A stretch of 64,000 bases of DNA from Escherichia coli (GTDB taxonomy: Bacteria; Pseudomonadota; Gammaproteobacteria; Enterobacterales; Enterobacteriaceae): assembly GCF_003790525.1 (NCBI RefSeq), contig NZ_CP033635.1. One strand, written 5' to 3'. Positions 45,034 to 53,521 of this stretch are shown in pieces (within the stretch, counting starts at the first letter, position 1; each line of letters starts with the position of its first letter). Position numbers and translations under genes: made by a program. The notes beneath the pieces are model-generated. The model was not told the origin of the DNA. It made no database searches and saw only the letters and a program-made list of their open reading frames with translations.

Positions 45034-45333
45034 TTATAAGAAATCGGTTTCATAACTTTGTCCGCCATGATAAACACCTGCGATAAAGACTTTATTGTCA
45101 TCAACGGCAAAAGCAATAATCGTTCTGTGGCGGAAATGAGTTACCCGCATCCCCTGGCGAATATCATCGCGTTTATTGCCCCGATGCGGAAATGCAGAAA
45201 ACCCATCAAGATAATCAAGAAGCGCATTGGCATAATTGTCAGCAATGACGCCTCCTGCTTTCTCCGTTATATATCTGTGCAGGTTTATTATCTGCTGTTC
45301 GGCCTCGGGGGTAATGATGACTTCAAATGTCAT
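45034..45333 (-). CDS. parE: type II toxin, RelE/ParE family
   Basis: 99 aa ParE-like pattern; 5 bp downstream of antitoxin gene. Confidence 0.7.
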   Translation of the reverse strand: MTFEVIITPEAEQQIINLHRYITEKAGGVIADNYANALLDYLDGFSAFPHRGNKRDDIRQGMRVTHFRHRTIIAFAVDDNKVFIAGVYHGGQSYETDFL

Positions 45334-45338
45334 GCAGA

Positions 45339-45596
45339 CTACTTCCCGGATCTAATCGCGGCGCGAACCTGTGAAATGGAGCGTCCGTTGTTTGGGTTTT
45401 CGCGGATAGAATCAAGAGAGGGGGCGACTGAATGCGTTAACCACGCTTCGATTGCTTTATCGCGCTCATTCAGTGCGCGAAGCCCTTCACGAATGACCTC
45501 GCTTTCTGAAGCATAGGCACCGGAAGCCACACGGGAGCGCACCATGTCAGCCATCTCGTTAGTTAATGTAATACTGAATTGTTGGGTTGTACGCAT
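45339..45596 (-). CDS. parD: type II antitoxin, ParD/ribbon-helix-helix family
   Basis: start at MRTTQQFSITL (RBS gtgagg); RHH motif SESEVIREGLRALNERDKAIEAWL. Confidence 0.7.
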   Translation of the reverse strand: MRTTQQFSITLTNEMADMVRSRVASGAYASESEVIREGLRALNERDKAIEAWLTHSVAPSLDSIRENPNNGRSISQVRAAIRSGK

Positions 45597-48345: not shown

Positions 48346-49059
48346 ATGGATGACAGTACTCTGCTCAGGTACTCTTCACTTTTTGTTGCTTATATGGGAT
48401 GTCTTGGGTGGGGAAGCGCTTACTTTTATGGCTGGGGTACATCCTTTTATTATGGTTTCCCATGGTGGGTGGTTGGGGCTGGTGTCGATGATGTGGCCAG
48501 AAGCCTTTTTTATGCCGTTACAGTCATTGTTATATTCCTGATTGGGTGGGGAGTCGGTGTTGTTTTCTTCCTGGGGATCAAACAAAAAAATAATGTGCAG
48601 GATCTGAGTTTTATCAGACTTTTTCTGGCGATATTGTTGCTTTTTGTTCCGCCTGCTCTGGAGTTTTCAGTAATTCATCGACGCGTTGCGCTAGATGCAT
48701 TGGTTTTATGCGTTATTGCTGCCTTAATAATTACGGTTTTTGTCAGGTCAGGAAGAAGACTTATTTCAGTCAAATGTTTTTCGGAAATGTCTTTTATTCG
48801 TCATCACTGGATTGAGTGTATGATGGTCGGATTCATGATCTATTTCTGGGGATTTTCACTTATTGCCGGTTGGTACAAACCCCAGTTTAAGAAGGAATAT
48901 CAGATGCTCCACTATGATAGTGTCTGGTATTATGTTCTTGCACGCTATGATGACAGGCTGGTGTTGTCGAAATCGTACAGTAATGGGAGTTCTACATTCG
49001 TTATACTTAATAGCGGGCAGATTGATGACTTCGAAGTTAATGTAGTCAGAGTGCGTTAA
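48346..49059 (+). CDS. membrane protein of unknown function (cargo between Q and tRNA genes)
   Basis: 237 aa; Trp/Gly-rich N-terminal TM helices plus hydrophilic C-terminal region; visibly AT-richer than flanking prophage genes. Confidence 0.6.
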   Translation: MDDSTLLRYSSLFVAYMGCLGWGSAYFYGWGTSFYYGFPWWVVGAGVDDVARSLFYAVTVIVIFLIGWGVGVVFFLGIKQKNNVQDLSFIRLFLAILLLFVPPALEFSVIHRRVALDALVLCVIAALIITVFVRSGRRLISVKCFSEMSFIRHHWIECMMVGFMIYFWGFSLIAGWYKPQFKKEYQMLHYDSVWYYVLARYDDRLVLSKSYSNGSSTFVILNSGQIDDFEVNVVRVR

Positions 49060-49181: not shown

Positions 49182-49257
49182 GTCCCTTTAGCTCAGTGGT
49201 GAGAGCGAGCGACTCATAATCGCCAGGTCGCTGGTTCAAATCCAGCAAGGGCCACCA
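49182..49257 (+). tRNA. tRNA with CAU anticodon (Ile2/Met-type, ileZ-like)
   Basis: cloverleaf folds by eye: D stem GCTC/GAGC, anticodon loop CTCATAA, T loop TTCAAAT, CCA encoded; one mismatch at pair 2-71. Confidence 0.8.
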
Positions 49258-49258
49258 A

Positions 49259-49335
49259 CCGCCACTAGCTCATCAGGAGAGAGCATCAGCCTTCTAAGCT
49301 GACTGTGCGGGGTTCGAGTCCCCGGTGGCGGTCCA
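49259..49335 (+). tRNA. tRNA-Arg (UCU)
   Basis: cloverleaf folds by eye: D stem GCTC/GAGC, anticodon stem TCAGC/GCTGA, loop CTTCTAA, T stem CGGGG/CCCCG, CCA encoded. Confidence 0.85.
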
Positions 49336-49750: not shown

Positions 49751-50023
49751 ATGAGAATGGACGAACGATACAGTAACGCTGCATACGGCAGCGCAGGACT
49801 TGTTGCGTTCTTTGCCAGCCTGTCACTGCAGGATTGGGGATTTATTATCGGCGTGGCGTTCAGTATCATTCTTGGTGTTCTTACTTATCGCCTTAACAAA
49901 CGGGAGCAGGAAAAACGAACCCGCATATTGCTCGAAATTCTGGAACGAACTAATGCCGGTAATGTTCCGGCTACGGCACATGCTGTGGCTGAGATTGCGA
50001 AAAAGGCACCAAAAGAAATATGA
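49751..50023 (+). CDS. holin (two-TM, pinholin-like) with dual-start motif
   Basis: 90 aa; MRM dual start, two hydrophobic helices, charged C-terminus; RBS ggaggtgaggg. Confidence 0.7.
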   Translation: MRMDERYSNAAYGSAGLVAFFASLSLQDWGFIIGVAFSIILGVLTYRLNKREQEKRTRILLEILERTNAGNVPATAHAVAEIAKKAPKEI

Positions 50024-50179
50024 CGAATATCCCGGGAGTGAGGGGATAATATACCTTTTAACAAAATCCGGGAACATGAAACGCCCGGAACGTTTCATGA
50101 GACATGCCCCGTGGGGAGCAGGGCATAACTGTGCGGAATAGCTTTCATTGTGATATCAATAATCACGGTATTCAAAATA

Positions 50180-50557
50180 TTACGGGCCTGTGGGATCAGG
50201 TTGTTTTTTGTCTGATTCCAGAGGGAAGGGACGCTGTTTCGGTTCTCTGAACTTTAGTGATAATGAATTGAAAATCCTCATTTTTTGCTGCCATGCATAA
50301 TGTCTGTCCCATGAACAGGGGGGGCTCAATTCTTCATTCACCCATGCGTTAATATCTTGTTTCAGGTGTTGAAGCATATGGGGTGTTAATGCACTCATAA
50401 TAATATCCAGCGTTTTATGCGAGAGTTTACCGTAAGGGTCTGCAAGGATGCTGCTCGTTGCTTCGTTATTATCCACCATAAGTGGAAGTAGCGCTGATTT
50501 AACTTTTTCTGTCATTAGTTGCAAAAATCTACTGCGCAAATTTTCTTTACTGTTCAT
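50180..50557 (-). CDS. hypothetical protein encoded antisense inside the lysis cassette
   Basis: 125 aa hydrophilic ORF with gagg RBS; lies between 11-bp direct repeats at 50087 and 50607. Confidence 0.45.
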   Translation of the reverse strand: MNSKENLRSRFLQLMTEKVKSALLPLMVDNNEATSSILADPYGKLSHKTLDIIMSALTPHMLQHLKQDINAWVNEELSPPCSWDRHYAWQQKMRIFNSLSLKFREPKQRPFPLESDKKQPDPTGP

Positions 50558-50680
50558 TTCTGAAGCCTCATCTGTTGTCGTTTGGTTTTCCTGAACGGGT
50601 ATGTTTATGAGACATGCTGGTACTGGATTATATACCTGATATATCCAGGGCTATAAACCTTTAGATCCTGATAAATATAC

Positions 50681-51214
50681 ATGAACGCAAAAATCAGATA
50701 CGGCCTGTCGGCTGCCGTTCTGGCGCTGATTGGTGCTGGCGCATCTGCTCCTCAGATACTTGATCAGTTTCTGGACGAAAAAGAGGGTAACCACACAACG
50801 GCATACCGCGATGGTTCTGGCATATGGACCATCTGCCGCGGTGCCACGGTGGTGGATGGAAAACACGTTTTTCCCGGAATGAAGCTGTCGAAGGAAAAAT
50901 GCGCTCAGGTTAATGCCATTGAGCGTGATAAGGCGCTGGCATGGGTGGAGCGCAATATTAAAGTTCCACTGACCGAAGCACAGAAAGCGGGTATTGCGTC
51001 ATTCTGTCCCTATAACATTGGCCCCGGTAAGTGTTTCCCGTCGACGTTTTATAAGCGGCTTAATGCCGGTGATCGAAAAGGCGCCTGCGAGGCGATTCGC
51101 TGGTGGATAAAGGATGGTGGGCGCGATTGCCGCATACGTTCAAATAACTGCTATGGACAGGTTATTCGTCGTGACCAGGAAAGCGCATTAGCCTGTTGGG
51201 GGATAGATCAGTGA
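50681..51214 (+). CDS. SAR-type endolysin (phage lysozyme)
   Basis: 177 aa; N-terminal signal-anchor-release-like segment [15 protein letters not shown] followed by lysozyme-like catalytic region; precedes Rz/Rz1. Confidence 0.8.
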
Positions 51215-51678
51215 GCAGAGTCGCCGCGATTATTTATGCTCTGGTTATCTGCATCATCGTCTGCCTGTCGTTGGCGGTCAATCATTACCGTGATAACGCC
51301 ATAGCCTACAAAGAACAGCGTGATAAAAAAGTCAGTGAACTGAAGCAGGCGACCGCCACCATTACTGACATGCAGCAGCGTCAGCGTGATGTTGCTGCGC
51401 TCGATGCAAAGTACTCGAGAGAATTAGCCAATGCGAAAGCTGAAAATGAAACTCTGCGCGCTGATGTTGCCGCTGGCCGTAAGCGCCTGCGGGTCAATGC
51501 CAGTTGCTCCGAAGCCGTGCGTGAAGCCACCGGACCCACCAGCGTGGATAATGCAACCAGCCCCCGACTGGCAGACACCGCTGAACGGGATTATTTCACC
51601 CTCAGAGAACGGTTGATGACGATGCAGAAGCAACTGGAAGGGGCACAGGAGTATATCCGCACTCAGTGCATTAAGTAG
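51211..51678 (+). CDS. i-spanin Rz
   Basis: GTGA overlap with endolysin stop; N-terminal TM helix, coiled-coil periplasmic domain. Confidence 0.8.
51431..51616 (+). CDS. o-spanin Rz1 (lipoprotein embedded in Rz, +1 frame)
   Basis: [22 protein letters not shown] lipobox and Pro-rich [28 protein letters not shown], very similar to lambda Rz1. Confidence 0.8.
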
Positions 51679-53194: not shown

Positions 53195-53521
53195 ATGAAA
53201 AGACGCCTTTCACTACTTTTTCTGTTATCTGCCCTGGCAGTGGGATGCTCGCAGCAAAAAGCTGATGAGCCCCGGCAATTAGTGACGGTGTATCCACGAT
53301 ATCCGGAATATGCTGCAGCAAATTATATCAAGGGGCTGGTTGAGGTTAAGTTCGATATTGGTGCTGACGGGACTGTGACACGGATCGTTTTTCTCCGCTC
53401 AGAGCCTCATAATTTGTTTCGTGATGAAGTGGTGAAGGCCATGGCGAAATGGAGATTTGAAAAGAATAGTCCCCGTCAGGGAGTGAAGAGACAATTTATC
53501 TTTACGCCATCACGTCCCTGA
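53195..53521 (+). CDS. lipoprotein consisting of a TonB C-terminal-like domain
   Basis: start MKRRLSLLFLLSALAVGCSQQ (lipobox LAVGC); region YPRYPEYAAANYIKGLVEVKFDIGADGTVTRIVFL...FRDEVVKAMAKWRFE aligns with host TonB C-terminus [32 protein letters not shown]...[15 protein letters not shown] in this window. Confidence 0.7.
   Translation: MKRRLSLLFLLSALAVGCSQQKADEPRQLVTVYPRYPEYAAANYIKGLVEVKFDIGADGTVTRIVFLRSEPHNLFRDEVVKAMAKWRFEKNSPRQGVKRQFIFTPSRP

Follow-up and report, generated by a model that had tools for sequence, protein, structure and literature searches.

The stretch of DNA analyzed here (the window), 64,000 nucleotides of the Escherichia coli contig NZ_CP033635.1 (assembly GCF_003790525.1), contains a prophage lysis cassette in which a gene of the phrog_1853 family lies antisense between the genes for the holin (S) and the endolysin (R). 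The holin gene (49751..50023, plus strand) encodes a protein of 90 amino acids (aa) with two predicted transmembrane segments, matches the phrog_1350 holin profile (E 3e-29), and is named ‘phage holin family protein’ in sister genomes by the Prokaryotic Genome Annotation Pipeline (PGAP). The R gene (50681..51214, plus strand; 177 aa) matches the phrog_7 endolysin profile (E 5.5e-62; PGAP ‘lysozyme’) and has a Gly/Ala-rich N-terminal segment resembling a signal-anchor-release (SAR) sequence; the N-terminal sequence and published data (PMC8136144) suggest that R is an SAR-endolysin. An earlier note on this DNA had placed both genes at these coordinates and a 125-aa hydrophilic open reading frame (ORF) at 50180-50557 of the minus strand, all of which was borne out; the gap between the lysis genes is 657 bp. 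The note had also reported an 11-bp direct repeat bracketing the ORF and a perfect 9-bp inverted repeat overlapping its first copy. The two copies of the direct repeat, ATGAGACATGC on the plus strand, are indeed identical and are the only ones in the 64-kb window, but the first is located at 50097..50107 rather than 50087-50097 (10 bases off), the second being at 50607..50617; similarly, the inverted repeat is perfect and shares 3 nt with the first copy, but occupies 50075-50099 rather than 50065-50089. The phrog_1853 gene is the only ORF of at least 60 aa lying fully inside the spacer, which is also entered from the holin by frames of 113 and 91 aa.

Codons 1–104 of the antisense gene (50557-50246) encode the canonical phrog_1853 protein, and codons 105–125 with the stop codon (50245-50180) form a lineage-specific read-through tail. 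Residues 1–102 match positions 57–158 of the 159 positions of the phrog_1853 profile (E 4.3e-41), and the identity of the window protein to its phrog_1853 relatives is 46–80%. This family of unknown function includes ECs_1097 of O157 Sakai (WP_000138558.1) and gp06 of Stx2-converting phage 86 (YP_794053.1); one homologue cluster carries the EDL933 name ‘unknown protein encoded within prophage CP-933O.’ In seven loci at 46–80% aa identity, the frame is open for 104–106 codons and closed at the same place by TAA or TAG, the canonical C-terminus of the family being LS(L)KFR/GNR followed by the stop codon, and the same length of 104–106 aa is seen in 72 out of 80 IMG/VR loci. Pairwise ratios of non-synonymous to synonymous substitution rates (dN/dS) are 0.15–0.40, with substitutions mostly at third codon positions; comparisons of the window with loci L009, L006, L007, and L008 yield 0.18–0.31 and, again, a third-position excess. 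The AlphaFold2 model, built from a 10-sequence alignment, consists of five helices (predicted local distance difference test, pLDDT, 90.3; predicted template modeling score, pTM, 0.81). Given the profile match, the conserved frames, the dN/dS values, the IMG/VR lengths, and the structural model, the minus-strand ORF is, with hardly any doubt, a real conserved gene.

The product of this gene is a soluble, basic protein of ~104 aa with few homologues, all from enterobacterial prophages: 15 clusters in a set of 5.8 billion proteins and 21 representatives in a profile search of a 1.84-billion set, where a profile of 10 members recovered the phrog_1853 family alone. The antisense ORF has no match in Pfam, NCBIfam, or PADLOC, and the PDB sequence profile search was empty as well; the defense models of PADLOC-DB 2.0 yielded nothing at E up to 0.1 for the ORF, its O157 homologue, or the product of the phrog_1085 gene that accompanies it in some phages (see below). 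Foldseek found no match in PDB, and its AFDB50 matches were limited to uncharacterised proteins from E. coli, Shigella, and Salmonella. The family is absent from the literature as searched by accession, PHROG identifier, and locus tag, including ECs1097. Any specific function proposed for the phrog_1853 protein, including those considered below, is improbable.

In order to characterize the genomic position of the family, we classified 92 loci from IMG/VR, GenBank phages, E. coli genomes, and metagenomic contigs. In all 92 loci, the window included, the gene runs opposite to the late genes on either side of it, and its 5′ end faces a lysis gene, usually R. A class II holin, the antisense ORF, and R follow each other in 55 loci; in 31 loci, the holin is followed by a phrog_1085-domain gene, in some cases preceded by YdfR, and then by the ORF and R; in three loci, which are the most distant relatives, the phrog_1085 gene and the ORF precede the holin; two loci are of the window type; and one locus is a short contig, L013, whose context was not resolved by the classification. 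Hence the position of the family varies among phages, between S and R or upstream of S. The homologous spacer was found in 673 out of 5426 complete E. coli genomes, mostly of enterohaemorrhagic E. coli (EHEC); in O157 Sakai, ECs_1097 belongs to prophage Sp4 and is flanked by the endolysin ECs_1096 on one side and the holin ECs_1100 on the other.

Phages with the same R but without the antisense gene usually have a co-oriented YdfR (DUF1327) gene in the gap, e.g., mEp460, PhiR40_1, Tritos, and Sakai Sp10. Since YdfR occupies the same interval in cassettes with the same R, the S–R gap is a common slot for accessory genes, and the frequent S–YdfR–R order contradicts, for this phage clade, the premise of the earlier note that the lysis genes of lambdoid phages are as a rule contiguous. 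When both strands of the spacer were searched for YdfR, neither tblastn (five query proteins, YdfR or its fusions; E up to 100) nor Pfam gave a match. We also rejected a reading of the ORF as the complement of a degenerate ydfR or phrog_1085 gene, as there is no similarity to either.

Two O157 loci of the family have rearranged cassettes. In Sakai Sp4 (L104, 18366-21376), the block of the holin, ECs_1097, endolysin, and Rz is inverted relative to the Q, tRNA, and esterase genes and adjoins pchA as well as copies of IS629. An IS3-family element interrupts the holin in O157 strain 2159 (L009), which makes the lysis cassette defective, yet this locus retains an intact antisense ORF.

The window is identical to the corresponding region of E. 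coli TUM1886, and its full arrangement occurs in just 19 complete genomes. Elsewhere, the phrog_1350-type holin is found in ~46-kb phage-plasmids, in Salmonella phages UPF_BP1 and 29485, and in locus L005, and in those cassettes the holin stop codon overlaps the start of an rrrD-like lysozyme gene (162–165 aa), leaving neither spacer nor antisense gene. A relic of this overlap is seen, both in the alignment and by direct reading, at 50021..50034 of the plus strand (TGACGAATAT; in UPF_BP1, TGATGAATAC), and the aligned homology to the same-holin cassettes stops at ~50034, ~11 nt beyond the holin stop codon, which marks the left junction (J1). On the right, homology to the ORF–R block of EHEC begins at 50247, in the last canonical codon, and continues through the intergenic DNA into R. 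As for R phages without the ORF, they share with the divergent region between the antisense gene and R (50558..50680) only its R-proximal ~20–40 bp (50641-50680), the common sequence starting at 50641-50671.

Between these boundaries lies a 212-bp orphan segment (50035..50246), which contains two hairpins, the first copy of the direct repeat, and the 21-codon ORF tail. No sequence similar to it was found in phages, plasmids, or E. coli genomes beyond the 19 sharing the arrangement, and it holds no remnant of YdfR or phrog_1085. Its motifs, searched for in IMG/VR and the GTDB representatives, retrieved only an identical IMG/VR contig and one probable chance match, in a metagenome-assembled genome of Desulfosporosinus (~0.5 such matches are expected for 20 specified bases in 298 Gb, both strands). 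Relative to the window, the sister strains LH50-c and 24A16CRGN010 have 16 single-nucleotide polymorphisms clustered in 164 bp of R (50815-50978), with only four differences in the preceding 1 kb, and this patch shows that recombination is continuing.

Taken together, these alignments indicate that the arrangement is very probably a mosaic junction and not an insertion accompanied by duplication. In the lineage of the window, mosaic recombination at gene boundaries brought the ORF–R–Rz block of Stx-type prophages next to a foreign holin, replaced the overlapping lysozyme gene of that holin, left the 212-bp orphan segment, and removed the stop codon of the ORF, extending it to 125 aa. Of the discrete insertion proposed by the earlier note, one part stands: the spacer carries an accessory unit outside the core lysis machinery, as supported by the direct overlap of this holin type with lysozyme elsewhere, by the differing positions of the ORF family among phages, and by the G+C content of 39%. 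The other part, that the 11-bp repeats bracket the insertion, does not.

Overall, the locus is probably best explained by an accessory, moron-type gene of lambdoid prophages, present here as a chimeric copy that arose via module exchange. The most likely mode of action is that of an accessory protein expressed independently in the lysogen, although for autonomous lysogen-phase expression as such the chances seem about even. The gene would be transcribed alone from the AT-rich divergent region and, given its antisense orientation, chiefly in the lysogen, with the late operon switched off. The candidate promoter has a perfect −10 hexamer TATAAT (50627..50632, minus strand) in AT-rich surroundings and a poor −35 element; the sequence GGATTATATAC is kept in L009, L006, and L007 and not in L008, L003, and L004. 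Translation would start from a GAGG Shine–Dalgarno site (50566..50569, minus strand), 8 nt before the ATG at 50557, where most relatives have GAGG or GAGA. The transcript would end at the hairpins at 50127-50075, and the product would supply a prophage or host accessory function, plausibly related to control of lysis genes or to superinfection. The hairpin farther from the gene is formed by the perfect inverted repeat CATGAAACG/CGTTTCATG (50075-50083/50091-50099; 9 bp with a 7-nt loop), which gives an 11-pair stem in the minus-strand RNA and is a candidate 3′ hairpin with a putative terminator role; a perfect 9-bp hairpin with a loop of 3–10 nt arises by chance in 61 out of 3000 shuffles (2%). 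The other, with a 9-pair stem (50103..50127), lies directly upstream on the minus-strand RNA and is present in both the minimum free energy and the centroid folds. Thus, the ORF stop codon is followed by the hairpins at 50127-50103 and 50099-50075 and then by UUCCCGGAUUUUGUU, with no clean U-tract.

A different hairpin is conserved in the relatives of the Stx2-86 type (L003, ~2380-2420; L004) and in the distant loci L014 and L017: a GC-rich CGCCAGTG-N4-8-CACTGGCG, mostly followed by TTTT, which is located between the lysis gene and the ORF start in the ORF sense and is absent from the window and the O157-type loci. By its appearance, it could be a terminator or an insulator placed ahead of the antisense gene.

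Several observations weigh against a functional, independently expressed accessory gene. The −10 hexamer is present in the O157-type and L007-type relatives and lost in the more distant ones; consensus scans of the window and the O157 copy (L009) found neither a sigma-70 promoter nor an intrinsic terminator on the minus strand; and the 3′ fold, with a z-score of −1.5, is not significantly more stable than that of shuffled sequences. The strict adjacency to a lysis gene may be due to direct participation in lysis instead of a generic moron function. A direct repeat with one copy in each non-coding gap is rarer than expected by chance (0.2–0.4% of shuffles; 13/3000 and 4/2000), for which there is no positive explanation. 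Finally, the window copy may be decaying, as suggested by the lost canonical stop codon, the frameshifted variants, and the pseudogene call. Indeed, codon 105 is GAA in the window and TAA or TAG in all seven compared relatives, so that the frame continues for 21 Pro/Lys-rich codons into the orphan segment; PGAP flags the window copy as a partial pseudogene and calls a pseudogene in four genomes; and the metagenomic variants P0002 and P0004/P0005 are frameshifted at homopolymers of the ORF (A6 and C7 of the coding strand, 50281-50286 and 50318-50324), which are either slippage-prone sites of decay or places of assembly errors.

If these signs of decay are taken at face value, the window copy would be a pseudogene without function that travels with R, the family itself being real. 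The missing phrog_1085 partner, the foreign 3′ region, and the fact that the sole ORF difference between the sister lineages is non-synonymous (H60R) would agree with this. However, the 125-aa frame is intact in all four inspected complete genomes and in the IMG/VR contig, and all 104 canonical residues, the invariant ones included, are kept. The 125-aa protein has an AFDB model whose superposition on that of the 104-aa protein yields a TM-score of 0.99, and a disordered Pro-rich tail need not inactivate the protein, while the frameshifted variants come from short metagenomic assemblies and, being in homopolymers, may be due to sequencing errors. A pseudogene seems unlikely, and this read-through copy may still be functional.

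The second alternative concerns the neighbor of the ORF in other phages. In 34 of the 92 loci, among them the most distant relatives, where the pair stands upstream of the holin, the ORF is convergent with a late-sense gene having a conserved ~110-aa C-terminal domain (phrog_1085; motifs GRCMG..LQ.AAEIE and DNPPFK), with a 3′ overlap of 20–32 bp; examples are L007 1355-2023, L003 2792-3598, L017 3338-3895, and L014 1710-2264, and in Stx2 phage 86 the partner is fused to YdfR. As the pair is found both between S and R and upstream of S, it moves as a unit, and the ORF could be half of a two-gene module, e.g., a late effector with an antagonist expressed in the lysogen, the window copy being an orphan half. 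This is at odds with the 55 loci, including nearly all O157-type copies, where the partner is lacking and the ORF is nevertheless intact and constrained; no partner remnant was found in the window or in the O157-type spacers of EHEC either. The partner has no match in Pfam, NCBIfam, or PADLOC, and the AlphaFold2 prediction for the ORF and the partner fused into one chain gives no support for a complex (pTM 0.41, low confidence at the partner C-terminus), although a shallow alignment and an artificial linker make it a weak test. All in all, a two-gene module seems a rather doubtful explanation for the family.

Next, the unit might act mainly at the level of RNA or transcription, the minus-strand transcription colliding with read-through from pR′ and the holin, with the protein being secondary; R–Rz (in other phages, S) would then be insulated from leaky expression in the lysogen, or lysis timing would be tuned. 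Such action would account for the invariant antisense orientation, with the 5′ end abutting a lysis gene in 92 loci with three holin types, for the plus-strand terminator-like sites at 50185-50202 and 50578-50598 (four found vs. 1.6 expected in the region), and for the hairpins beside the holin stop codon. On the other hand, purifying selection on amino acids (dN/dS 0.15–0.4) together with a confidently predicted conserved fold shows that selection acts on the protein as such. A strong promoter could not be detected, and a search of 50024-50680 against Rfam 15 retrieved no family, the only matches in the window being two tRNAs and sub-threshold hits elsewhere. Moreover, Q-modified late transcription is expected to override weak terminators, as in lambda. 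Hence we find it quite improbable that the unit acts mainly via RNA, whether as insulator or as timer of lysis.

Direct control of the adjacent lysis genes is the most interesting remaining possibility. In that case, the phrog_1853 protein would be a dedicated lysis-control factor, expressed in the lysogen or in early infection from the divergent region by R or S, that would hold the SAR-endolysin/holin system in a silent or safe state or block lysis by a superinfecting relative, with phrog_1085 as its late counterpart. If true, this would define a new class of lysis regulators in ~12% of complete E. coli genomes, O157 included; in this specific form, however, the proposal is a long shot.

The weakest alternative is that a mobile element (~50108-50606) inserted between adjacent holin and endolysin genes and duplicated an 11-bp target, ATGAGACATGC; the sequence comparisons largely refute it, and there is scarcely any chance that it is correct. 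It draws on the rarity of a repeat with one copy per non-coding flank, noted above, and on the normal contiguity of this holin type with lysozyme. However, the copies (50097, 50607) coincide with none of the junctions (~50034, 50247, ~50641-50671). The first copy bridges the two hairpins within the orphan segment, and the second is located between the ORF and R, in the putative 5′ untranslated region of the antisense mRNA, so that on the minus strand both copies would sit in untranslated ends of that mRNA. At the position of the second copy, L006 has ATGAGACCTGC (10/11) and L009 has ATGAGAGCGAC (partial match); in these relatives, which have no left copy, the DNA at this position forms one continuous stretch with the ORF and R. 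In the sister strains LH50-c and 24A16CRGN010, the substitution A50102G turns the first copy into ATGAGGCATGC, only 10/11 of the repeat, and the ORF still has 125 aa. A target-site duplication is therefore rejected by the junction mapping, by the absence of the repeats from relatives, and by the broken first copy in the sister strains. Neither a transposase nor an integrase nor terminal inverted repeats were found in the spacer (ORF list and repeat pairs), and the search for an empty site between the same flanks, which covered phages, plasmids, E. coli genomes, IMG/VR, and the GTDB representatives, revealed none, although it has low power, since the left flank has no relatives. Alignment with related lysis cassettes, as suggested by the earlier note, thus mapped the junctions but found no empty site. 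The note had also held that its proposal would fail if relatives carried the spacer without repeats and the ORF showed neither conservation nor expression; the relatives do have the spacer without repeats, but the ORF is strongly conserved.

The significance of the repeats depends on the way the question is posed. An exact direct repeat of at least 11 nt is present in 6.8% of dinucleotide shuffles of the 657-bp spacer (thus, somewhere in the spacer, in ~7%) and in 26.5% of those of the 1.6-kb region, and ~150 11-mers recur within 1 kb elsewhere in the window; the expected number of occurrences of ATGAGACATGC in the 64-kb window, 0.03, is a post-hoc figure. The best gapped local match, GTTT(C)ATGAGACATGC (15/16), is reached in 3 out of 2000 shuffles, and in four other S–ORF–R loci the longest words shared by the flanks are of 7–8 nt, which is matched by 39–83% of shuffles. 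The repeats and the 9-bp hairpin are thus mildly non-random and not compelling alone. A longer collinear duplication of the left and right gaps was considered and rejected: there are only the 15/16 match and a separate 12/13 match, GGATWATATACCT, in the opposite order, with no extended alignment. The latter match is itself a second direct repeat, GGATAATATACCT at 50044-50056 and GGATTATATACCT at 50625-50637 (12/13), whose right copy includes the minus-strand TATAAT; as the two pairs are in opposite order, they do not derive from one duplication.

Downstream of R are the gene of the Rz i-spanin (51211..51678, plus strand; phrog_13 Rz-like spanin, E 2e-76; PGAP ‘lysis protein’) and, embedded in it, an Rz1 lipoprotein ORF (51431-51616), whose translation contains the lipobox LAVSAC. 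The G+C content is 39% in the antisense gene, 38% in the divergent region, 48% in the holin, 52% in R, and 53% in Rz. Farther downstream (~53195-53521), the TUM1886 annotation lists an HNH endonuclease pseudogene as well as a small gene for a ‘TonB family protein.’ Upstream of the holin are two phage tRNA genes: that at 49182-49257, with the anticodon CAT, is assigned to Met by ARAGORN and to tRNA-Ile by RefSeq (like ileZ of the Sakai prophages), and that at 49259-49335 is tRNA-Arg (TCT), in place of which tRNA-Lys is annotated in the sister prophages L100 and L101. Between Q and the tRNAs, a gene with 42% G+C (48346-49059) takes the place that toxin or esterase genes have in Stx phages; its product, of 237 aa, is a multi-pass membrane protein (phrog_1521, unknown function). 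A RelE/ParE–ParD toxin–antitoxin pair is located upstream of the Q region (~45034-45596, TUM1886 annotation).

Thus, the unusual distance between the lysis genes is accounted for by the ordinary mosaicism of phages and a hypothetical gene that is already catalogued, rather than by a new mobile element. The interest now lies with the gene family: its small protein is under constraint and has a confident structural model, but no detected homologue of known function and no similar solved structure, and the gene is fixed antisense to a lysis gene in hundreds of prophages of pathogenic E. coli, including O157 Sakai Sp4 and Stx2 phage 86. If this gene influences lysis or the stability of the prophage, the release of Shiga toxin or spontaneous induction could be affected.

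Compared with its phrog_1853 relatives, the window copy has the same five-helix model, is likewise antisense, and has its 5′ end toward R; it differs from them in having no canonical stop codon, a tail of 21 additional residues, another holin type, and a unique 3′ flank, and from the Stx2-86-type loci in lacking their phrog_1085 neighbor. YdfR (DUF1327) of Qin-like and mEp460-like phages occupies the same S–R interval next to the same R type; however, it is co-oriented with the late operon and unrelated in sequence, and both genes coexist in some phages.

The small RNAs AsxR and AgvB (Pas small RNAs) of EHEC lambdoid prophages are 51–60 nt long and are encoded in the interval between sialate esterase and holin or 3′ of stx2AB (PMC4104026; bioRxiv 10.64898/2026.05.13.724894). 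Like the spacer gene, they are antisense or intergenic elements in the late regions of the same prophage group; unlike them, the spacer gene is situated between the genes for holin and endolysin, its product is a protein under constraint, and Rfam has no match for it. Identity of the spacer with a known small RNA was rejected, given the negative Rfam result and the different map positions of AsxR, AgvB, and Pas.

A further parallel is with morons, a concept that reportedly goes back to Juhala and Hendrix. In lambda, bor is a moron transcribed against the late operon beside Rz and expressed in lysogens. Morons such as bor resemble the phrog_1853 gene in being small extra genes, antisense in the late region beside the lysis genes. 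The phrog_1853 gene is also present in some and absent from others of the related cassettes, being missing from some phages with the same R and from cassettes with the same holin, and its low G+C content (39% vs. 52–53% in R and Rz) fits a moron-type accessory unit. The two genes are not homologous, and the phrog_1853 protein, with neither signal peptide nor lipobox, is predicted to be cytoplasmic. Stx2 phage 86 carries both bor and the phrog_1853 gene, each of them antisense.

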